This document shows positions 4,839 through 34,682 of a DNA stretch of 35,198 bases, piece after piece. A model generated the notes under the pieces. The model saw only the letters and a program-made list of their open reading frames with translations, had not been told where the DNA came from and ran no database searches. The first letter of the stretch is position 1. The number at the start of each line of letters is the position of its first letter. The position numbers and the translations under genes were made by a program. Source of the DNA: a virus (lineage: Duplodnaviria; Heunggongvirae; Uroviricota; Caudoviricetes); IMG/VR virus record IMGVR_UViG_2548876963_000010; one strand, 5' to 3'.

Positions 4839-5045
4839 CTAACGCTTTTCGTTAACGGACTGACGAAATAGTGTGATGCCGTTCAAAAAAATGATTCTTG
4901 CCATGCTGGACATCGAACGGTTCTGCTCCAGCGCTAATGCTTCCAGTTCCGCGATTTCAGCGGGGAGCAGACGCATTGCCACCGGTTTGTTCGACATCAC
5001 CCCGCGGGGTGCTCGTGAGCGTAAGACGTTCTCATTTGTTTTCAT
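4839..5045 (-). CDS. Small ribbon-helix-helix-like protein, putative Cox-like early regulator
   Basis: 68 aa ORF divergent from XRE gene; segment VAMRLLPAEIAELEALALEQNRSMSSMARIIFLNGI has beta-strand/helix/helix pattern of Arc/CopG family; start uncertain (5045 or internal Met at ~4997). Confidence 0.5.
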   Translation of the reverse strand: MKTNENVLRSRAPRGVMSNKPVAMRLLPAEIAELEALALEQNRSMSSMARIIFLNGITLFRQSVNEKR

Positions 5046-5125
5046 GGTGGTATATTGTGGTTATTAACATTACACAATCTATAATTCCCTCAACTGAGTG
5101 AATTGTCAATGGTAATTATATCCAA

Positions 5126-5464
5126 ATGAAAGAATTTGGCATCCGTTTGAAGGAAGAACGTATCCGACTTGGACTTGATCAAGACGGCTTTGGACAACTT
5201 GGGGGCGTGAAGAAAAACGCACAAAGCAACTATGAGAATGGGTTGCGTAAGCCGGACAGTGACTATCTTGCTGGCATAGCGGCAGCGGGAGTTGATGTTC
5301 TGTATGTTCTAACAGGCAACCGCACGCCTGTAGTTACGTTGTCCAGTAAAGAGAGTGTGTTGGTGGAAAACTATCGTTCTGCTACGCCAGAACACCAGTC
5401 CACCCTTGACACGGTTAGCGCTGCGCTTGCGCAACCGGGAGTAGGGAAAGCAGCTAAGGGATAA
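5126..5464 (+). CDS. XRE-family helix-turn-helix regulator, putative immunity repressor (C-like)
   Basis: 112 aa; N-terminal HTH-like region with QSNYENGLRKPDSDYLAGIAAAGVDVLYVLTG; divergent arrangement with RHH gene across an 80-bp AT-rich switch region. Confidence 0.7.
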   Translation: MKEFGIRLKEERIRLGLDQDGFGQLGGVKKNAQSNYENGLRKPDSDYLAGIAAAGVDVLYVLTGNRTPVVTLSSKESVLVENYRSATPEHQSTLDTVSAALAQPGVGKAAKG

Positions 5465-5504
5465 CGAGTAGAATGAATTTGGTTATTGTCTGTATGGAGG
5501 CAAA

Positions 5505-6077
5505 ATGAAGTTGAATAATCTGGTTGCTCTTTACAGGAACATGACAGAGCAAAAATTGGATAGGGTTAAATTCCCATACAGACACAATAATTTACATTTT
5601 GATGTATTTTTCTTTATTGATGGAAAACCGTTTGAGCTTCTTTTCGGAGCATTAGGCGCTAATCTTTGCTTTCGTCTAAAAGTCGAGAAGGGATTCGTCA
5701 TAAATCCTAATCTGGGAAGTGAGACTTATAAAGAATTATGCAAGGCTCTAGGTTTGAAATATGACCCTGCCAATCCATTTAGAACAAGTAAGTTTTTTGA
5801 AGATTTTGATGGGAAAATCCCTCCATCGGTTACTGTTAAGAATAAGGCAAAATATACTGATATTGCTGTGCATGTCAGGGATGTTGAAGAAGCAGACAGA
5901 ATATATTTCTGTGGATGGAAAAACAACAATGAAGAAAAGAGTCATGTTACTGAAGATAATTTAAAGAAAACGAAAGAGTTTTTAGGGTATCAGGCTTTTC
6001 TTGTTTGTAAGGAAAAGAATATTAGCAGTAGATGGACTGATTTAGAAAATAAAGCGAAAGATTTTTATTTACCATAG
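5505..6077 (+). CDS. Hypothetical protein (190 aa), first gene of AT-rich cargo cassette
   Basis: ORF with GGAGG RBS 8 nt upstream; markedly AT-rich codon usage compared with flanking phage genes; no motif recognised. Confidence 0.6.
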   Translation: MKLNNLVALYRNMTEQKLDRVKFPYRHNNLHFDVFFFIDGKPFELLFGALGANLCFRLKVEKGFVINPNLGSETYKELCKALGLKYDPANPFRTSKFFEDFDGKIPPSVTVKNKAKYTDIAVHVRDVEEADRIYFCGWKNNNEEKSHVTEDNLKKTKEFLGYQAFLVCKEKNISSRWTDLENKAKDFYLP

Positions 6078-6091
6078 GATTGTGAGGTTAT

Positions 6092-7240
6092 ATGTCTGAT
6101 ATTTCATTAGGGTGCGTGGTTGTTCATAGGTTGATAAAAGAGCAACATAAAGATTTCGATCACTCAAAACCATATAGTCGCCGTGATACGGTTCTTGACC
6201 GAAATAATGAAATCGTAATTAAACTAGTGTCCAGTATAGCCGCATTGTATGGTAAAAAATCTAATAGCTCGCATTATGGTATATTTAATTTAGATGAAAC
6301 ACGTAGGGGGCCTTTTCCAGCGGCATTTGATAAATATCGGAATGATACATCCAAGAAGTTAGACGATGAATTGTTTATAGGATTATCAAAAAATGTTATG
6401 CATCAGTTATATATTGAGGCAAAGGATCGACCTGCTGCATCAGGAGGATTACTTCTTTTTGCTGATTATATCAGTAAATCCGTGCGTTACTTTCTTATTG
6501 CAATGATTAAGCAAAAGGAAGGTATAGTTATTAGTGATAAATTAGAACCAAAGGAGTTAGAGCATCTTGATCTGGCAAAACTAAATCAGGCGGCACGAAT
6601 AAACTATGATTTGTATGATAAATATATTTCCGCTGATGAGAATGAAAGACAGGATGTTAATTATTTAAGTTTTGTTAGTCCCAGTTCTAACCAGACAACT
6701 TCAGGGTATTTCATTACTGCCTTAGGTTGTGATAAAGGTAATACATCAACTAAAGCTACGAGTAATTTAATTAATGAATCTTTTAACTTCTTCAGAAATC
6801 ATCAAGAATTAAAGGATAATGCCCGTAAATTTAAAAATGAAATTATTGAGTATTTATTCGATTGTTCTGAGAATAACATTTCAGCTAAGCTCTCTGTTGT
6901 TAGTGAGATGGCAGCGAAGCATATGGTTAATTTAGAAGATGACATTAAAGATAAATTGTCAGAAGAATTATATGCTCATTTGAATAGTGAAAGTATTCGT
7001 GTGCCTGTGGAATTTAGGGTAAGCAAATCAGTAGTTAAGAAAAACAGAAATATTAAATATACAAGTGATAATGTTAATTTTGAGTTTAAATCTAGTTTAC
7101 TAGGCAATACGCTTGATAATGAGATATGCTATAATAAGAAAACTGGACATTTAACTTTTACTCGGATTACTCCTGAGAAAAAAAGTGAAATAGCTCAATT
7201 GCTTGATGAGTTAATAAAAGAAAGAAATAGCGAAAAATAA
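6092..7240 (+). CDS. YejK/NdpA-like (nucleoid-associated protein family) protein, 382 aa
   Basis: N-terminal VVVHRLIKEQHK (cf. E. coli YejK ALHQLIKRDEQ, recalled from memory), SIAALYGKKSNSSHYGIF (cf. ELHRVYSAKNKAYGLF) and ASGGLLLFADYISKSVRYFLIAMI (cf. [24 protein letters not shown]); RBS GTGAGG upstream. Confidence 0.6.
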   Translation: MSDISLGCVVVHRLIKEQHKDFDHSKPYSRRDTVLDRNNEIVIKLVSSIAALYGKKSNSSHYGIFNLDETRRGPFPAAFDKYRNDTSKKLDDELFIGLSKNVMHQLYIEAKDRPAASGGLLLFADYISKSVRYFLIAMIKQKEGIVISDKLEPKELEHLDLAKLNQAARINYDLYDKYISADENERQDVNYLSFVSPSSNQTTSGYFITALGCDKGNTSTKATSNLINESFNFFRNHQELKDNARKFKNEIIEYLFDCSENNISAKLSVVSEMAAKHMVNLEDDIKDKLSEELYAHLNSESIRVPVEFRVSKSVVKKNRNIKYTSDNVNFEFKSSLLGNTLDNEICYNKKTGHLTFTRITPEKKSEIAQLLDELIKERNSEK

Positions 7241-7251
7241 GGTTGCTTAAT

Positions 7252-8508
7252 ATGTCATGTTTTGAAACGGTTGTTGAGCTTTTCAGATATGTAGGGCGTC
7301 CTAAATTTGATGCTATTAATAATCGTTTTTCAGCAACTATTTCTTATGATGCTCATATATATGAACTCTTAGTTTCTTTGCAACCTCATACCGCGTGGGG
7401 AGAAATTGAAGAGATTGTCATTGATGATGTGGATATAGATGTTGATGATAGCCTTCCCGCTAAAGGAACATCAATAACACTGACAATCTCTATATCAACT
7501 GGAGCCAGTGAGTCATTTTTTATCGATATTAAAGATCTAATTCAAAAGTCTCCGATGTTAAATAGAGGTATTTTAAGAAAGTCTTTTTACTTGGTTGAGG
7601 AAGATTTTTATTTTAATGAAGGAATGGTTGAGGGATTAGCAAAAATACCAGAACTATCTGTTTTAAAAAATCTTTGTGATTTTATTTTATGTCTATCAAA
7701 AGTTGCACACTACAGCAATAGTAAAAGTGATGATGTATGCCATAAGTTAGTTTTCTTGAAAAATACTAATGCTAAGTCATTACCTTTAATTATTGAAACT
7801 AATGTTGATTATTCACTTCTTTTAACAGGTATTAAGGATTTAAAAATCATCGAATCTTTTTCTGATGAAAAAAAAGCTATAACGGATGATAATTATTTTG
7901 AGCGAAAAGGGATTTTCATTAATACGGTGGTCGATTTTCTTGAATCAATCGATGTAAAGAAACAGTTTCATTTTTTATTCTGTGAGTGGGATGAATTTCT
8001 AAAACTATACCATAATAACCTCGGTGTATATCTTAGTGGTTTTTCATTTCATAAAGTAAGAAAGGAAGTGGCAGAGGCAGAAGCTAATTTAGCTGAGCGT
8101 TTTTCAAAAATAATGTCAGACATGATAGCTAAGCTTTTAGGTATTCCTGTTTCTTTGGTTGCTACTTTTGGCATGATAAAATTAAATACCCTGCCGGAAA
8201 TGTTAGTGGTTTTTTTAGGTGTATTGCTCACGTCGATAATTATGTTTTTTATTGTAAGAAGTCAATACACACAGTTTAGGATGATTTGTGATGCTAAAGA
8301 TATTATATTTTCCCCATTAGTGAAAAAATCTGTAGGTTATACAGAAGATTTGAAAAAATTAGTATGCAATGCAAAGGATAATTTAGACAAAAATCAGGTC
8401 ATGTTAAATCGTTACCTTCTTTTCTTTCAATGCTTATGCTGGATTCCGACAGCCTTAGGTGGTGGAATGATCTTAATGGCTATTATGGTTCATTTAGGAT
8501 TACTATAA
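7252..8508 (+). CDS. Hypothetical protein (418 aa) with C-terminal transmembrane helices
   Basis: ATG at 7252 (listed ORF starts at a TTG at 7243); hydrophobic stretches IPVSLVATFGMIKL...MLVVFLGVLLTSIIMFFIV and YLLFFQCLCWIPTALGGGMILMAIMVHLGLL at the C-terminus; AT-rich. Confidence 0.6.
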   Translation: MSCFETVVELFRYVGRPKFDAINNRFSATISYDAHIYELLVSLQPHTAWGEIEEIVIDDVDIDVDDSLPAKGTSITLTISISTGASESFFIDIKDLIQKSPMLNRGILRKSFYLVEEDFYFNEGMVEGLAKIPELSVLKNLCDFILCLSKVAHYSNSKSDDVCHKLVFLKNTNAKSLPLIIETNVDYSLLLTGIKDLKIIESFSDEKKAITDDNYFERKGIFINTVVDFLESIDVKKQFHFLFCEWDEFLKLYHNNLGVYLSGFSFHKVRKEVAEAEANLAERFSKIMSDMIAKLLGIPVSLVATFGMIKLNTLPEMLVVFLGVLLTSIIMFFIVRSQYTQFRMICDAKDIIFSPLVKKSVGYTEDLKKLVCNAKDNLDKNQVMLNRYLLFFQCLCWIPTALGGGMILMAIMVHLGLL

Positions 8509-9603
8509 ACTTAATTCCATTTCTAATGCGGTGACATAACCAGTACCGCCATCCAACGTATGCACGCACCGCGTAATCACCCACGCGGTGCCGTCAATCT
8601 CCGCCTTAAACCCCTTCACCTGCACCGGTAGTTCCGGGAACAAATCGGGCCGTCCACGCGCAAGGTTCAGGCTGAACGTTGCCGCGCCGCGCTGTAGTTG
8701 CTCCCACGCGCTTTTTGCCGCTCTGTAGGCGTTATTTTTGTTGGCATAGGTGTGGCGCAGCACCTTGATATTTCCCTCTTCGCCGACCATCACGTTATCG
8801 GCGTTGAATGAGGCGTCTGACGGCGGCGATTCTGTTGGTTGCGTTTGCGGAAGGTTTTTCCGTGTCTTGCGCTTCACGTCAGTTGACTGCTTTTTAGCCT
8901 GCCGCGTATCCAGCCAGTAGGCCGTTACGCCGGTATAGGCTTCCCTGTCCGCGATGCTGAACCGGTGGCTGTCGCCGTCCTCGCGGTTAATGGTTGCGAC
9001 CGGCAGCGGCTTGCCGCTGGCGCTTTTACCGGAACCTGTCGGCATCAGCAGCAGAGCATCATTTTTCACGCAGGCGATAGCGCCGTGCATTTGCGCCAGC
9101 CGGGTTAGGAAGGATGCATCAGACTCGTTAGTCTGGTCAACGTGCTCAATGGCGATCCCAGCCAGCTCGCCGCTGACGGTTGATTCCAGCTTATGACGTG
9201 CCGCCACGGTTTGCACAATCGCGCCCAGCGTCACATCATGGTAGCTCTGTTCCCGTTTAACGTTCAGCGAATCGCGGAAATCGGCGCTGCGGGCGCGGAG
9301 GCTGAGTACGTCCGGTGCGCCGCTGTGCTCCAGTTCGTCCACTGTGAAGACATTCTGGTGCATCACGCCGTCACCCTTCCAGCCCAGAGAAACCGTTAGC
9401 TTTTCGCCCTTTGCCGGAAACGCCAGCAGGCCGTCGCTGTCGTCCAGTTCGAGCTGCAGTTCGTCGGCCTCAAAGCCCCGGTTGTCGGTGATACGCAGGC
9501 TGATTAAGCGGTTGTCCAGATTCCGCGTAATGTCCTTACCGTTCAGCACCACGCTGTACTCCGGCTGCGGCTGGGCGTTTAAGAGTGCGTTTAACATCGT
9601 CAT
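8503..9603 (-). CDS. D: Tail protein D (P2 gpD-like)
   Basis: 366 aa; position and order at the end of FI-FII-E-T-U-D tail operon; ATGA overlap with upstream U stop. Confidence 0.85.
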   Translation of the reverse strand: MTMLNALLNAQPQPEYSVVLNGKDITRNLDNRLISLRITDNRGFEADELQLELDDSDGLLAFPAKGEKLTVSLGWKGDGVMHQNVFTVDELEHSGAPDVLSLRARSADFRDSLNVKREQSYHDVTLGAIVQTVAARHKLESTVSGELAGIAIEHVDQTNESDASFLTRLAQMHGAIACVKNDALLLMPTGSGKSASGKPLPVATINREDGDSHRFSIADREAYTGVTAYWLDTRQAKKQSTDVKRKTRKNLPQTQPTESPPSDASFNADNVMVGEEGNIKVLRHTYANKNNAYRAAKSAWEQLQRGAATFSLNLARGRPDLFPELPVQVKGFKAEIDGTAWVITRCVHTLDGGTGYVTALEMELSL

Positions 9604-25846: not shown

Positions 25847-26014
25847 TCAAGTGAAAAGGCTAAAACAGATCAGTACCAACTTCGTCTTGCTCATGAATTT
25901 AGAAAGCAGCTTGAAGAACAGGCTCGTAAAGATGGAGATACCTCTCTCGCAACATGGATAAAACGCGTTTTGCGTAAGGAACTTCAGTCACGAGGTATTG
26001 AACCCAAAGGATAA
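25844..26014 (+). CDS. Small ribbon-helix-helix (Arc/MetJ-like) DNA-binding protein, 56 aa
   Basis: Not in supplied ORF track (below its length cutoff); MSSEKAKTDQYQLRLAHEFRKQLEEQARKDGDTSLATWIKRVLRKELQSRGIEPKG: beta-strand then two helices as in Arc. Confidence 0.6.
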   Translation: MSSEKAKTDQYQLRLAHEFRKQLEEQARKDGDTSLATWIKRVLRKELQSRGIEPKG

Positions 26015-26115
26015 TTACGGAGATATCAAGCAGCGCTAAGAAGTTAGGATTATTTGTTCAGCCCAGATTAGTCGATATGCACTGATTAACTTAAACATTG
26101 TGTGTAGGAGGTGTT

Positions 26116-26769
26116 GTGGATATTGAATTTTTTCTTAAAGAGCGCACAAGATTCGTTACTTATTTCTATGAAACGGCTGCTGCACCATTTGTTAACATCA
26201 TGAATGATATTGAGAATGAAGTGGAACCTTATATTCAGCCGTATGGTGAGAGTGATGAACCAGCTTTTTTAGATGAATGGTTAGATGCAAAGTCGGGATT
26301 AGAAACCTGTGGGCACCATGCATTATCGATGCTTTCGTCTTCTCTTCAGTTGTACCTGAAGGCGTGGGTAGATCGCTTAGGATATCATAGCGTGAAATCT
26401 GATATAAATTTCAAGAAGGGTTGGTTTAATGGCTATCGTGAAATTTTCAACAAAATTGAGTTGGAAATGGCAAAATGTCCTGCAAATTTGGAAATAATTG
26501 AACAAATTCCCTTGGTGAGAAATCGTGTCCAGCATCCTGAGGAACTTACCTCAATTAATATTTCTCACTCAAAAAATGACTTGGAAAAATATCCTCGCCC
26601 ATACTTTATTCAGGAGTGTGAGCTACTTTTGGCTTCCGAACAGGAAGAAAAATCGTGGTTATTCCCACCTACAATATCCCCGACTAAAGAGAAAATATTC
26701 GAAGCTATCAGAAATGTTGAAATGCTGTGCTCTTGGTTAGAGTCTGAGTATTGGTCGGCTCTTGACTAA
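26116..26769 (+). CDS. Hypothetical protein (217 aa) with R-x4-H motif, possible HEPN-domain protein
   Basis: GTG start at 26116 with AGGAGG 6 nt upstream (ORF track lists 26098); AT-rich; motif VRNRVQHPEE (R-x4-H). Confidence 0.55.
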   Translation: MDIEFFLKERTRFVTYFYETAAAPFVNIMNDIENEVEPYIQPYGESDEPAFLDEWLDAKSGLETCGHHALSMLSSSLQLYLKAWVDRLGYHSVKSDINFKKGWFNGYREIFNKIELEMAKCPANLEIIEQIPLVRNRVQHPEELTSINISHSKNDLEKYPRPYFIQECELLLASEQEEKSWLFPPTISPTKEKIFEAIRNVEMLCSWLESEYWSALD

Positions 26770-26858
26770 ATGTAGAATAGAGTAAGTCAGCGTCAAATGA
26801 AAACAGCCCGACGAATCGGGCTATTATGGCTATCAGGCAAACACTACCTTCAAACTCA

Positions 26859-30425: not shown

Positions 30426-32210
30426 ATGCCGCCAGACATCGAAAAACATCTGCTTGCCCTTCAGGACGAAGATCCACGCCGCAAAGCCCGCTATCTGTAC
30501 TGGCAGGGTTTTCGCATCGCGCGGATCGCCGAACTGCTGGGCGTAAAAGTCACCACGCTGCATAGCTGGAAGCGGCGCGACGGCTGGGATGAATCCGCCC
30601 CGCTGGAGCGAGTGACGGCGGTGACCGAGGCGCGTCTGATCCAGCTCACGGTGAAGGAAAATAAGGAGGGGAAGGATTTTAAGGAGATCGACCTGCTCTG
30701 GCGACAGATGGAGCGCGGGGCAAGGGTTGAACGCTATCAGCAGGGAGGCAATGAGGTCGACCTGAATCCTGCTCTTGCGAAGCGTAACGTCGGGTCGCGC
30801 AGACAGCCGGAAACCAACCATATCAGCGAGGAGCAGGCGGAGAAGCTGAAACAGCTATTTCTGGACGGACTGTATCCGCACCAGAAACACTGGTACCGCG
30901 CCGGGCTGGAACACCGTATCCGCGATATCAACAAGTCGCGCCAGATTGGGGCGACGATGTTCTTCGGGCGGGAAGGATTTATGGATGCGGTGGAGAGCGG
31001 GCGCAACCAGATCTTTCTCTCGGCCTCCAAAGCGCAGGCGCACCAGTTCCGCCAGTACATTGTCGATTTTGCCCGTGAGGTTGATGTTGAGTTGAAAGGC
31101 GATGTTATCCATCTGCCGCATAACGACGGGCGGATGTATTTTCTCGGCACCAATGCCCGCACCGCCCAGACCTATCACGGCAACCTGTATCTGGATGAAT
31201 ACTTCTGGATACACCGCTTTCTGGAACTGCGCCGTAACGCGGCGGGGATGGCCAGCCAGAAACGCTGGCGGCAGACCTACTTTTCCACGCCGTCCAGCAT
31301 TACCCATGAAGCCTATAAGTTCTGGACAGGGCAACTGTTCAACAAGGGCAGGCCGAAGAGCGAACAGATTCGACTGGATATCAGCCATCGGGCGCTGGCG
31401 GCGGGGCGGCTGTGTGAAGACGGCCAGTGGCGACAAATCGTCACCGTTGAGGATGCCATCAATCAGGGTTATGACCTGTTCGACCTCGAGCAACTCAGGC
31501 TGGAGAACTCGCCGGAAGAGTTCGCCAACCTGTTTATGTGCCAGTTTATCGACGATACCGCATCGGTATTCCCGCTCAGCATGTTGCAGGGGTGCATGGT
31601 CGATAGCTGGGAAGTCTGGGACGACTACAAGCCGTTTGCCCTGCGTCCACTCGGCGAACGCTCGGTGTGGGTGGGCTACGATCCTGCATTAAGCGGTGAC
31701 AGCGCCGGGTGCGTGGTGGTCGCGCCGCCGGTCATTGAGGGCGGCAAGTTTCGGGTAATTGAAAAGCACCAGTGGCACGGGATGGACTTCGCGGCGCAGG
31801 CGGAAAATATCCGCAAAATTACCGAGCGCTATAACGTGACTTACATCGGTATTGACGTGACCGGCATCGGCCACGGCGTGCATCAACTGGTGAAACAGTT
31901 CTTCCCGGCAGTGCAGGCATTCTCTTATTCCCCGGAAGTGAAACAGCGTCTGGTGCTGAAAACGCTGGACGTTGTCCGTAAACGCCGACTGGAGTTTGAC
32001 GCTGGATGGACGGATCTGGCGCAGGCATTTATGGCGATCCGCAAAACCCTGACCCCGTCCGGGCGTCAGGTGACCTTCGAGGCCAGCCGTTCGGAAGAAG
32101 TCTCCCACGCGGATCTGGCATGGGCGTGCATGCACGCCATTATCAATGAACCACTGGAAAGCTCTGGCGGCGCGAACAGCGGGCGGGGCTTAATTAAGGT
32201 GTATGGATGA
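30426..32210 (+). CDS. P: Terminase large (ATPase) subunit (P2 gpP-like)
   Basis: 594 aa; RBS GAGAGG; ATGA overlap with Q. Confidence 0.9.
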   Translation: MPPDIEKHLLALQDEDPRRKARYLYWQGFRIARIAELLGVKVTTLHSWKRRDGWDESAPLERVTAVTEARLIQLTVKENKEGKDFKEIDLLWRQMERGARVERYQQGGNEVDLNPALAKRNVGSRRQPETNHISEEQAEKLKQLFLDGLYPHQKHWYRAGLEHRIRDINKSRQIGATMFFGREGFMDAVESGRNQIFLSASKAQAHQFRQYIVDFAREVDVELKGDVIHLPHNDGRMYFLGTNARTAQTYHGNLYLDEYFWIHRFLELRRNAAGMASQKRWRQTYFSTPSSITHEAYKFWTGQLFNKGRPKSEQIRLDISHRALAAGRLCEDGQWRQIVTVEDAINQGYDLFDLEQLRLENSPEEFANLFMCQFIDDTASVFPLSMLQGCMVDSWEVWDDYKPFALRPLGERSVWVGYDPALSGDSAGCVVVAPPVIEGGKFRVIEKHQWHGMDFAAQAENIRKITERYNVTYIGIDVTGIGHGVHQLVKQFFPAVQAFSYSPEVKQRLVLKTLDVVRKRRLEFDAGWTDLAQAFMAIRKTLTPSGRQVTFEASRSEEVSHADLAWACMHAIINEPLESSGGANSGRGLIKVYG

Positions 32211-33187
32211 ATAACGCAATGGCTTTCACCTTCGGTGAACCCGAAGCCCTGCTGGACAGGCGGGAAATACTGAACTATCTGGAGTGCGTGGACTTTGGTA
32301 AATGGTATGCGCCGCCGGTGGATTTTAACTCGCTGGCGCTGTCGTTCCGCGCTTCGGCGCATCATACCAGCCCGATCTGCGTGAAGCGCAATGTGCTGGT
32401 TGGTACCTTCATTCCTCATCCGTTGCTAACCCGGCAGGCGTTCAGCCGCCTTGCGCTGGACTATCTGGTGTTCGGCAACGCTTATCTGGAGCGGCAGGAT
32501 AACCGGCTGGGCCAGCCGTTAACGCTGGTGCCTGCGCTGGCGAAGTATGTCCGCCGCGGTAAGGCGCTGGAGAACTATTTCTTTGTTCAGCCCGGTCGTG
32601 TGGATCATGAGTTTGCGCCGGGAAGTATCGGCCACCTGCTGGAGCCGGATATCAATCAGGAAATCTACGGCCTGCCGGAATATCTCTCTGCGTTGAACGC
32701 GGCATGGCTGGATAACTCCGCCACGTTGTTTCGTCGCCGTTACTACAAGAACGGCAGTCATGCCGGGTTCATTCTCTACCTGAGCGACCCGGCTCATAAT
32801 GAGGCGGATATTGAAGCACTGCAAGTGGCGCTGGCGAACAGCCGTGGCCCCGGCAACTTCCGCAATTTGCTGATGTATTTGCCGAACGGCAAGCCGGACA
32901 GCGTAAAGGTGATCCCGATTGGCGAGGTGGCGGCGAAAGATAACTTCTCCGATATCAAAAGCGTCAGCCGTGACGACCAGCTAGCCGCGCACCGGGTACC
33001 ACCTGCGCTCATGGGCGTGGTGCCGAGTAACGCCGGTGGCTTTGGTGATGCCATCAAAGCGGCGAAGGTATTCAACTGCAATGAGATCGAGCCGCTGCAG
33101 GAACGCTTTAAGGAACTGAACGACTGGTTGGGGCTGGAGGTTATTCGCTTCAAAAAGTACCGCCTTGCCGACGACGATTCAGAGTAA
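32207..33187 (+). CDS. Q: Portal protein (P2 gpQ-like)
   Basis: 326 aa; translationally coupled to P. Confidence 0.9.
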   Translation: MNNAMAFTFGEPEALLDRREILNYLECVDFGKWYAPPVDFNSLALSFRASAHHTSPICVKRNVLVGTFIPHPLLTRQAFSRLALDYLVFGNAYLERQDNRLGQPLTLVPALAKYVRRGKALENYFFVQPGRVDHEFAPGSIGHLLEPDINQEIYGLPEYLSALNAAWLDNSATLFRRRYYKNGSHAGFILYLSDPAHNEADIEALQVALANSRGPGNFRNLLMYLPNGKPDSVKVIPIGEVAAKDNFSDIKSVSRDDQLAAHRVPPALMGVVPSNAGGFGDAIKAAKVFNCNEIEPLQERFKELNDWLGLEVIRFKKYRLADDDSE

Positions 33188-33233
33188 CCCCACCAATGAC
33201 CAACTCTCCGTCAGCGCCACCACGCGCCATTCA

Positions 33234-33256
33234 GCCCGCTTCCTGCGGGTTTTTTT
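33234..33256 (+). terminator. Rho-independent terminator after Q
   Basis: CCCGC-ttcct-GCGGG followed by TTTTTTT. Confidence 0.6.
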
Positions 33257-33292
33257 ACGCCTTCTCACCGCCAGAATCTCCAGCCAGCACCG

Positions 33293-33311
33293 CCAGCGCG
33301 CGGTTGTGACC
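33293..33311. other. Candidate cos site (cohesive-end sequence)
   Basis: Reverse complement reads GGCGTGGCGGGGTCACAAC; first 12 nt match the GGCG(A/T)GGCGGGG start of the P2/186 cohesive ends as I recall them. Confidence 0.4.
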
Positions 33312-33510
33312 CCGCCACGCCTGCGCAGTAAATAGATCGCTTTTTTTGCACTGGTGCGTAAGCGTCGGAGCGGGCCATAACGGGAGGGCGTGGTCGGGTT
33401 GCGGGTGCAGCAGAATCATGCGGATTTATGCGCCCTGTGTATGCGCCAGAGACGATCGGGAGGACAATGCCACGATCCTTTCGGTATTTTTGGATCGCCT
33501 GTCGGGAAAA

Positions 33511-33786
33511 GGTAACCTCAGTAATTGGCAGTAAAAATAATGCTTATTCTATTGTTTATAAAAGAGAAATTTGGTTACCCATAAAAGGTAATCTGAGGTA
33601 ACCCAAAAGGTAACCTGTTTTATATTTTCATATAAATCATAATGTTACCAATTAGAAGAGATCACTATTATAAAAGGTAACCTGATTACCCTTTGGTTAC
33701 CAGAAGATTACCTTTCTCTGTTTTTGAAAAATCCTTTTTATTCATTAAGTTATTTTGATTTTTCGTTGCAGGTTACGAAGGTTACC
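33511..33786. repeat. Cluster of GGTAACC/GGTTACC heptamer repeats (consensus AAAGGTAACC) in both orientations
   Basis: Exact heptamers at 33511, 33573, 33597, 33609, 33676, 33694, 33780 plus variants (GGTAATC, GATTACC, GTTACCA, GGTTACG) in ~280 bp of AT-rich non-coding DNA. Confidence 0.8.
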
Positions 33787-34056
33787 TTTTTCCGAAGCCC
33801 CCACGGACTTTGGTATATATAGATAGGTTAAAAAGTAGCCATTATGTTTGCCTGCTATTTACTTCCCATTCTTCCACTGGCCAGCATGTTAATATGCCCG
33901 GTAATGATAACTCGTTGCCGTTGGGTTACTTTCTTCTGTGGACGGTAAAACTGACGGTAAATTGGGTAATGTGTCTCTATTTAGACTATGAAAATCAAGT
34001 AATTAAAGTGATTGTATATAATCGAGTGGGAATGATTTGACCCTGCACTATGAATG

Positions 34057-34089
34057 AACAAAACCCTCTGTTACTACAGAGGGTTTTTT
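34057..34089. terminator. Bidirectional rho-independent terminator
   Basis: AACAAAA-CCCTCTG-ttacta-CAGAGGG-TTTTTT; downstream of minus-strand gene ending at 34128. Confidence 0.75.
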
Positions 34090-34127
34090 ATACTCACGAA
34101 TCATAGGATTGAAGTTACTAACATCGA

Positions 34128-34667
34128 TTAATTAAACCAGCTGTCCGATTTGTTCTCTTCTGCTTTGCCCACGCTTTTCATCAGATCTCGACCGCCCTCA
34201 GTCATATTCCTGTTTGCGTCAGCTTCAGATTGCACCACATCGGTTTGCGCAGCTTTGTGCTTCAGTTCCTGATCGATAAATTCGTTTTCTCGCTTAACGC
34301 GGGCTTCTTCTTTCGCCAGCGCCAGTTTTTGCTTCTGAATCTCTAAGCTACGTAGCTCATCTTCATAACTTTGATCGCGTTTTTTGTCCGCAGTGGCTTC
34401 GGCGTCCAGTTTATCCTGACGAGCTTTCTTATTCGCTGCTGCCGTTGCCGCTCTTTTATTAGCCGCGGCCTGGGCGTTTGCGCGACGTTGCTTCTCTTGC
34501 TGGATTTCCCTGTTGCGCTCCGCGACCCATTCGTCATGCTGCCTTTGCTCTTCATTTTTACCTTGCTGTTCCGCTTCTGCGACAGCCGAGAGTTGATCCT
34601 GCAATGATGAGGCGATAGCCGGATAGCTTAAGGAGGCTAAGATGGCGCAAAGAAAAACTTTCTTCAT
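34128..34667 (-). CDS. Secreted Lys/Ala/Glu-rich coiled-coil protein (likely host chromosomal)
   Basis: 179 aa with N-terminal signal peptide (MKKVFLCAILASLSYPAIASS); outside prophage. Confidence 0.65.
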   Translation of the reverse strand: MKKVFLCAILASLSYPAIASSLQDQLSAVAEAEQQGKNEEQRQHDEWVAERNREIQQEKQRRANAQAAANKRAATAAANKKARQDKLDAEATADKKRDQSYEDELRSLEIQKQKLALAKEEARVKRENEFIDQELKHKAAQTDVVQSEADANRNMTEGGRDLMKSVGKAEENKSDSWFN

Positions 34668-34682
34668 GACTCCTCCTGATTA

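Follow-up and report, generated by a model that had tools for sequence, protein, structure and literature searches.

The stretch of DNA analysed here (IMG/VR virus record IMGVR_UViG_2548876963_000010; 35,198 nucleotides, hereafter the window) is a P2-family prophage of Escherichia coli, in which a gene for an NA37/YejK-like nucleoid-associated protein (NAP; 6092-7240, + strand) is followed by a gene for a 418-amino-acid protein (7252-8508, + strand). By analogy with published relatives, we propose that these two genes probably constitute a two-gene defence system that acts by abortive infection with a NAP as its sensor (DS-1/type II PANGU-like) and that the prophage carries as lysogenic cargo. 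The proposal is based on the homology of both proteins, on their strict pairing and domain make-up, and on the mobile elements and the cargo slot in which they are found; a role in defence is more secure than the mechanistic details. Set beside its relatives, the pair is best filed as a divergent, predicted member of the known DS-1/type II PANGU class rather than as a new kind of system. Its novelty is hence modest, since this class of system was published in 2025-2026.

An NA37 protein paired with a membrane protein

The gene at 6092-7240 starts with ATG and encodes 382 amino acids, and we propose its product as the DNA-clamp sensor of the pair. An earlier note on this DNA, made from the sequence alone, had taken the protein for a homolog of E. 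coli YejK/NdpA on the basis of N-terminal motifs, and had named a Pfam profile search and an alignment with YejK as checks. The homology is borne out far beyond chance. Pfam NA37 (PF04245) matches the protein with an E-value of 5.7e-46 and 157.8 bits, well above the gathering score of 24.6, and the match runs nearly from end to end (residues 10-361, corresponding to profile positions 1-322 of 325); the protein is also matched by PHROG 3767, "nucleoid associated protein" (1.3e-63). With the single sequence as phmmer query against PDB chains, E. coli YejK (9be2) was found at 1.7e-9, and a profile built from 22 family members matched 9be2_A at 7e-27, with profile positions 3-367 aligned to chain residues 5-332; the similarity therefore spans both YejK domains and is not confined to short chance motifs. 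The motifs themselves are present and paired with their YejK counterparts in the HMMER alignment to 9be2: HRLIK (aa 12-16) with HQLIK, YGIF (aa 62-65) with YGLF, and GGLLLFADY (aa 118-126) with GGFVLFCHY. The structural homology to YejK is drawn from these sequence and profile comparisons rather than from a three-dimensional model of the protein.

Over its whole length, the window protein thus belongs to the same two-domain family as E. coli YejK/NdpA, a chromosomal nucleoid-associated clamp that is dimeric and binds dsDNA non-specifically, and with which it shares the HxLIK, YGxF and GGxxxFxxY motifs and a basic cluster in the C-domain. It is not YejK itself, however, since it scores 108.8 bits against the NCBIfam YejK equivalog NF001557, for which 341 are required. 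Judging from the sequence, we regard it as a member of a paralogous or xenologous NA37 subfamily and not as a YejK orthologue. Moreover, unlike chromosomal yejK, the window gene is AT-rich, horizontally mobile and operon-coupled to a putative effector.

The earlier note was correct in describing a cargo gene but treated it as a lone one, whereas an obligatory operon partner follows at 7252-8508. The partner gene begins 11 bp after the NA37 gene, at an ATG (7252) that agrees with the homologues and the RefSeq annotation; the alternative TTG start of this open reading frame (ORF) at 7243 is probably unused. No Pfam domain was found in the partner by a Pfam scan, and phmmer searches against PDB sequences gave nothing significant for it, nor for the product of the DUF6037 gene located upstream of the pair; PHROG 5023 matches the partner at 3e-52. 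The family is sizeable and uniform: at 50% identity and E<=1e-3 it comprises 1032 clusters, and most of the 150 best matches are ~400-430 aa long and near full length. In the AlphaFold2 (AF2) model (mean predicted local distance difference test score, pLDDT, 85), an N-terminal alpha/beta domain is followed by very long helices. The N-terminal domain (aa 1-245; 7252-7986, + strand) is acidic, with a net charge of -14 and an isoelectric point (pI) of 4.8, so that it might mimic DNA and serve as the docking site of the NA37 clamp; the N-terminal part is acidic also in the partner homologues and in DS-1B (net -7 to -14), with the same charge asymmetry. The most conserved motif of the family, NNLxxYLSGFSFHKxxxEVAEAE (aa 256-277; 8017-8082, + strand), which contains the invariant columns of partner alignment A1, lies in the long helix preceding the first hydrophobic segment. 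The C-terminal region (8122-8505, + strand) is predicted to be membrane-embedded on the basis of a Kyte-Doolittle scan and the long AF2 helices, with hydrophobic segments at approximately aa 291-309, 311-339 and 394-418. Since the NA37 gene has an obligatory membrane partner with an acidic N-terminal domain, we consider the two genes a candidate sensor-effector system.

The pairing is strict. In GTDB representative genomes searched with hidden Markov models of the two families, the partner gene lies directly downstream of the NA37 gene in all 32 species-level loci, which come from Enterobacterales, Pseudomonas, Halomonas, Dyella, Stenotrophomonas, Noviherbaspirillum, Phenylobacterium and one metagenome-assembled genome (MAG) of Desulfosarcina. 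The pair is also found between Q and the holin gene in Salmonella lambdoid prophages, in E. coli lambdoid prophages, in Klebsiella phage P7641, and in a Rheinheimera island, where it lies next to AbiE and a type I restriction-modification (R-M) system. Compared with the window, the Salmonella, E. coli lambdoid and Rheinheimera copies are 47, 47 and 43% identical in the NA37 protein and 34, 37 and 29% identical in the partner. As far as the sequences tell, the two proteins diverge in parallel and are in strict 1:1 co-evolution, and therefore a physical partnership is favoured over transcriptional regulation of one by the other. The neighbours of the family are prophage genes (Q, lysis, DUF968 and methylase genes) and genes for integrases, TniQ, TraG, type I R-M and AbiE, hence the pair travels on mobile elements. 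A PADLOC scan of 146 neighbouring ORFs returned mostly prophage methyltransferases and was uninformative on defence islands.

The pair is intact in 30 of the 32 loci; in the remaining two, L034 (4980-7274, from a Pantoea symbiont of Euschistus servus) and L043 (4920-7324, from Shigella flexneri), it is split into several ORF fragments, which fits decay in host-restricted lineages. A 43%-identical pair is present on a 330-kb contig (L024, JAUSNP010000006.1) of a MAG labelled Candidatus Moraniibacteriota, thus assigned to a bacterium of the candidate phyla radiation; this pair reflects either long-range transfer or a mis-binned proteobacterial contig.

In the window, the pair occupies a variable cargo slot (5438-8534) that is bounded by the 3' ends of a helix-turn-helix (HTH) repressor-like gene and of tail gene D. 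The surrounding genes are those of a P2-family phage, with an integrase (1-1200), a toprim replication protein, an Ogr/Delta zinc-finger gene and the repressor-like gene, and with the minus-strand tail genes D (gpD), U (gpU) and tape measure beyond the cassette. The prophage of E. coli GMF054, which is ~97% identical to the window, is integrated beside guaA and has a P2-family capsid and terminase. The cargo consists of three co-oriented + strand genes, for the DUF6037 protein (5505-6077), the NA37 protein and the partner, and the GC content of 5505-8508 is 32.2%, compared with 54.8% in the remaining window. The claim of the earlier note that the NA37 gene is phage cargo in an AT-rich cassette is thus upheld, and the slot can be specified as one of a P2-family prophage. 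The E. coli L725 prophage aligns with the window at 97.8% identity up to position 5437 and again, at 96.2%, from position 8535, with a different 2.2-kb cassette in between. In L725, as in CEC15 (flanks 96-98% identical), the slot holds a gene for another NA37 protein (Pfam 9.5e-15) and a gene for a RelA/SpoT-domain protein (RelA_SpoT 1.7e-18); in L725 this pair (locus L001, 3494-5580, NZ_CP036202.1) encodes 362 and 333 aa, and its NA37 protein is 20% identical to that of the window over 172 aa (E 0.002). Since the same prophage slot carries two alternative NAP-based systems, the context provides strong support for a defence role.

Relation to DS-1, PANGU and YejK

Both proteins have relatives of demonstrated defence function. 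The NCBIfam models DS1_1_antiphage ("nucleoid-associated anti-phage protein", NF053868) and DS1_2_antiphage (NF053869) match the NA37 protein (1.2e-22, 80.5 bits) and the partner (1.5e-19, 70.4 bits), respectively, although neither reaches the equivalog cut-off (330 and 315). In hhalign comparisons, the NA37 protein aligned with DS-1A with a probability of 97.2% over 294 columns and the partner with DS-1B with a probability of 96.7% over 254 columns, whereas pairwise identity to the DS-1 proteins is ~26% over partial lengths. The sequences thus indicate that the window pair is homologous to DS-1 but belongs to a different subfamily. DS-1 is DefensePredictor system D390, consisting of WP_000355468.1 (391 aa, zinc ribbon and NA37) and WP_000150292.1 (404 aa), and lowered phage plating in E. 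coli MG1655; the "YejK nucleoid-associated domain" is among the newly validated defence domains of that study, and its predicted defence genes (Table S10) include a 382-aa "nucleoid-associated protein" (PMC13092281). The mechanism of DS-1 was not described there (PMC13092281). The occurrence of this family in a phage cassette, which the earlier note found unexpected, is no longer so, given that DS-1 has been validated (PMC13092281) and that NCBIfam DS-1 models and a PHROGs phage NA37 family exist. None of the three cassette proteins was matched by PADLOC v2.0.0, the library of which predates DS-1 and PANGU.

DS-1 and the window pair are both from E. coli and consist of two collinear genes, with the NA37 gene first and the gene for a partner of ~400 aa second, and the N-terminal part of DS-1B is acidic (net -8), as is that of the window partner. 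In hhalign, the TM-aligned region of DS-1B matches the first hydrophobic segment of the window partner, although a hydropathy scan gave no transmembrane (TM)-like segment in DS-1B. They differ in several respects. DS-1A starts with MDITCLECG...CDKCG, a CxxC...CxxC zinc ribbon, and its NA37 domain begins at residue 42, whereas the window NA37 domain begins at residue 10 and is not preceded by a Cys pair. Finally, the window pair has an adjacent DUF6037 gene.

The architecture of the window pair also resembles that of PANGU, the bicistronic operons in which a YejK-like NAP is combined with an effector (bioRxiv 10.64898/2026.04.06.716658). In type I, the NAP Pag1A is encoded with Pag1B, a GRel toxSAS alarmone synthetase; in type II, the NAP Pag2A is encoded with Pag2B, which combines an acidic DNA-mimicking "DMK" domain at the N-terminus with a TM domain at the C-terminus (bioRxiv 10.64898/2026.04.06.716658). 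Both genes are required, neither protein alone is toxic or protective, the phenotype is abortive infection, and T4 escapes through EndoII mutations (bioRxiv 10.64898/2026.04.06.716658). The type I NAP binds long DNA via basic residues lining its pore and forms an activating complex with the DMK domain of its effector; infection drives the NAP off the nucleoid in both types (infection with T4 in type II), and Pag2A binds the isolated DMK domain with a dissociation constant (KD) of 19 nM, while the route to Pag2B activation is not yet known (bioRxiv 10.64898/2026.04.06.716658). The window pair resembles type II in its bicistronic arrangement (with a gap of 11 bp) of a YejK-like NAP and an effector candidate with an acidic domain at the N-terminus and a predicted TM region at the C-terminus; both are from E. 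coli, and PANGU is likewise tied to mobile elements and defence loci. This likeness is one of architecture, Pag2A and Pag2B being set beside the window proteins by their description. With type I, the window shares the sensor family, and the NA37 plus RelA/SpoT architecture fills the very same slot in L725 and CEC15; the type I effector, however, is an alarmone synthetase, whereas the effector candidate of the window is a membrane protein.

These relatives bear on the function that the earlier note had suggested for the NA37 protein. A repurposed DNA-binding module acting as a sensor agrees with the findings on them, but the sensing of foreign DNA does not, since the PANGU NAP sits on host DNA and signals the destruction of that DNA (bioRxiv 10.64898/2026.04.06.716658). 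For the other suggested role, that of a nucleoid remodeler, our analysis offers no support.

The window subfamily departs from both YejK and PANGU in the basic residues of the predicted DNA clamp. In YejK, the basic residues that line the clamp pore are R173/R176/K177 in the N-domain and R276/R280/K284 in the C-domain. DNA binding is lost when the N-domain triad is mutated (PMC11229321), and mutation of Pag1A K200/R203/K204, which are spaced like the YejK triad, has the same effect (bioRxiv 10.64898/2026.04.06.716658). In the HMMER alignment to 9be2, in which the loop could be shifted, the YejK triad aligns to S198/Q201/T202 of the window protein, within the loop SPSSNQT (aa 196-202; 6677-6697, + strand) that contains no basic residue; Lys and Arg together number 0-1 in the equivalent loop of all 22 family members. 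In contrast to type II PANGU, the window subfamily therefore appears to do without the N-domain basic triad. The C-domain retains a basic cluster, KSVVKKNRNIK (aa 312-322; 7025-7057, + strand), with 2-5 Lys or Arg residues across the family; YejK R276/R280/K284 align to K312/K316/N320, and R319 and K322 are close by. Further basic residues conserved in the NA37 subfamily are K140, K142, R169, R186 and K215. The absence of the triad may mean that DNA binding is weaker or different, or merely that the loop alignment is shifted. If the sensor has lost the residues that YejK and Pag1A need for holding DNA, another trigger is conceivable. We thus give a small chance to the possibility that the subfamily, lacking a YejK/Pag1A-type N-domain triad, is a mechanistically distinct NAP system, triggered not by bulk loss of chromosomal DNA but by a phage protein, a particular form of DNA or competition for the acidic domain, in which the fold-orphan DUF6037 protein would perhaps be a third component in the window and in Salmonella prophages.

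The significance of the pair lies in the fact that a previously unnamed, sizeable family (~1000 partner clusters at 50% identity) is placed in a class that uses a NAP clamp as a sentinel of host-genome integrity. Moreover, the exchange of a membrane effector for an alarmone synthetase in the P2-family slot (L725, CEC15) represents a natural experiment in sensor-effector modularity, and the missing N-domain triad and the recurrent DUF6037 neighbour mark the points at which the subfamily may depart from the published examples. For annotation purposes, a prophage "nucleoid-associated protein" of this sort is better read as a "probable anti-phage sensor" than as a housekeeping NAP.

Proposed mechanism and alternatives

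The repressor-like gene (5126-5464, + strand; 112 aa; Pfam HTH_3 3e-5, HTH_31 2.7e-5), annotated as a helix-turn-helix protein in GMF054, is co-oriented with the cassette and ends 40 bp upstream of it. Consensus scans between its stop (5464) and the DUF6037 start (5505) gave no + strand promoter-like and no terminator-like site, while a GGAGG sequence lies 5' of the DUF6037 start. A promoter-like site is present 5' of the repressor-like gene (5029-5056, + strand; TTCTCA-16-TATATT with an extended-10 TG, a consensus match only), from which a lysogenic transcript reading into the cassette probably starts; the cassette is thus probably expressed in the lysogen.

We postulate that the pair would be transcribed in the lysogen, probably together with the repressor gene, and that the NA37 protein would dimerise to form a YejK-like clamp held on chromosomal DNA. 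An infecting phage that degrades the host chromosome would free the clamp, which could then bind the acidic N-terminal domain of the partner instead of DNA. The C-terminal transmembrane helices of the partner would in turn damage the membrane, so that the infected cell would no longer support phage growth. Within this scheme, we infer the defence phenotype, the clamping of DNA, the release upon genome degradation, the binding of the acidic domain and the action on the membrane from the relatives of the pair, PANGU and YejK.

Could the system comprise three genes rather than two? The DUF6037 gene (5505-6077, + strand; 190 aa, pI 8.9) is co-oriented with the NA37 gene and lies 14 bp upstream of it, and among the predicted defence genes of DefensePredictor Table S10 is WP_024247617.1 (PMC13092281), the accession that the DUF6037 gene of GMF054 bears in its annotation. 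Moreover, a Salmonella lambdoid prophage has its genes for DUF6037, NA37 and partner in the same order, at 39, 47 and 34% identity to the window. The DUF6037 protein could hence be integral to the system, for instance by regulating the pair, by serving as a second trigger sensor or by inhibiting the pair and so keeping it silent; the mode of action would then differ from that of the two-gene DS-1 and PANGU. However, none of the 32 species-level loci has a DUF6037 gene in the 5 kb around the pair, which places the gene outside the conserved core, and none is called or annotated beside the pair in the E. coli lambdoid prophages, the Rheinheimera island or Klebsiella phage P7641. DUF6037 is mostly found as a solo moron of prophages, on the strand opposite to the phage genes in at least three other contexts (Yersinia-type, metagenomic and Ralstonia prophages), and DS-1 and PANGU function as two genes. 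The simple explanation that the trio was inherited as a block was rejected, since the DUF6037 proteins of the window and of Salmonella fall into different clades, each nearer to solo genes (52 and 57% identity) than to the other (39%). Since the clades differ, the juxtaposition with the pair may have arisen twice, which counts in favour of a three-gene system. On balance, we regard a three-gene system as rather unlikely and DUF6037 as most likely a separate cargo gene rather than a part of the core of the pair.

Two further explanations, both of which we consider quite improbable, assign the pair a role other than two-component immunity. The NA37 protein could be an accessory nucleoid protein of the prophage itself, which compacts or silences DNA of the phage or the host, or tethers it, with the partner as a possible link to the membrane. 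YejK is a genuine NAP, PHROG 3767 is filed under DNA metabolism, and annotations place NA37 genes, with no known defence role, in temperate phages that have been isolated (e.g., Pseudomonas F116-like); the F116-type proteins, however, are just 22-24% identical to the window protein, the subfamily of which is strictly tied to a membrane protein and moves among islands, slots and prophages of unrelated types. Its AT-rich genes, a moron on the strand opposite to the phage genes, follow the pattern of cargo rather than that of a core phage function, the slot is interchangeable with NA37 plus RelA/SpoT, and homologous pairs have a demonstrated defence phenotype. The remaining explanation, which we hold to be no more probable, is that the pair stabilises the prophage as an addiction module or serves in superinfection exclusion; the membrane protein would then act alone, e.g., by blocking DNA injection, and the NA37 protein would merely regulate its expression. 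A membrane-protein effector encoded by a prophage is typical of superinfection-exclusion systems, and lysogenic co-transcription with the repressor is plausible. Nevertheless, PANGU requires both proteins, the parallel fall of identities in a strict 1:1 pair argues for a physical partnership, and the Pfam scan of the NA37 protein detected no HTH or other regulator-type domain. A two-gene defence system that senses infection through the NA37 protein thus accounts best for the collective observations.

Distribution, the DUF6037 protein and other variable regions

The cassette is present in 2 of 5426 complete E. coli genomes. The exact window sequences of the NA37, DUF6037 and partner proteins are found in 167, 244 and 178 contigs, respectively. 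Clusters of at least 90% identity extend the partner to Salmonella houtenae and Morganella, and DUF6037 to Salmonella houtenae, Edwardsiella and Klebsiella. In clusters defined by at least 90% identity to representatives, a 190-aa DUF6037 protein (366 contigs) and a truncated 193-aa fragment of the partner (377 contigs) are each commoner in E. coli than the exact window proteins, a pattern that may reflect a widespread cassette in decayed form.

The AF2 model of the DUF6037 protein is of high confidence (pLDDT 92; predicted template modelling score, pTM, 0.86), and no structural relative of it was found in PDB or BFVD. In some sources, DUF6037 is labelled "RloE protein". A literature search gave no paper on "DUF6037" and only unrelated matches for "rloE"; the label presumably recalls the R-linked ORFs of Campylobacter type I R-M loci.

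Elsewhere in the window, the last phage-like gene identified is a portal-like ORF (32207-33187), beyond which (33200-35198) the GC content is ~40%. This end contains a DUF5384 protein gene (34128-34667, - strand) and a gene for a glycine-zipper/TraT-like lipoprotein (34683-35198, - strand), which leaves the window; it may be the end of the prophage or further cargo. Within the otherwise collinear tail/baseplate region, 21408-22214 showed no megablast-level alignment to the GMF054 prophage. A second AT-rich variable slot (~40% GC) is located at 25774-26857 and includes a 223-aa ORF (26098-26769, + strand) with no Pfam or NCBIfam match; in its place, the GMF054 prophage, otherwise 95-97% identical, carries a Doc-family toxin-antitoxin pair.

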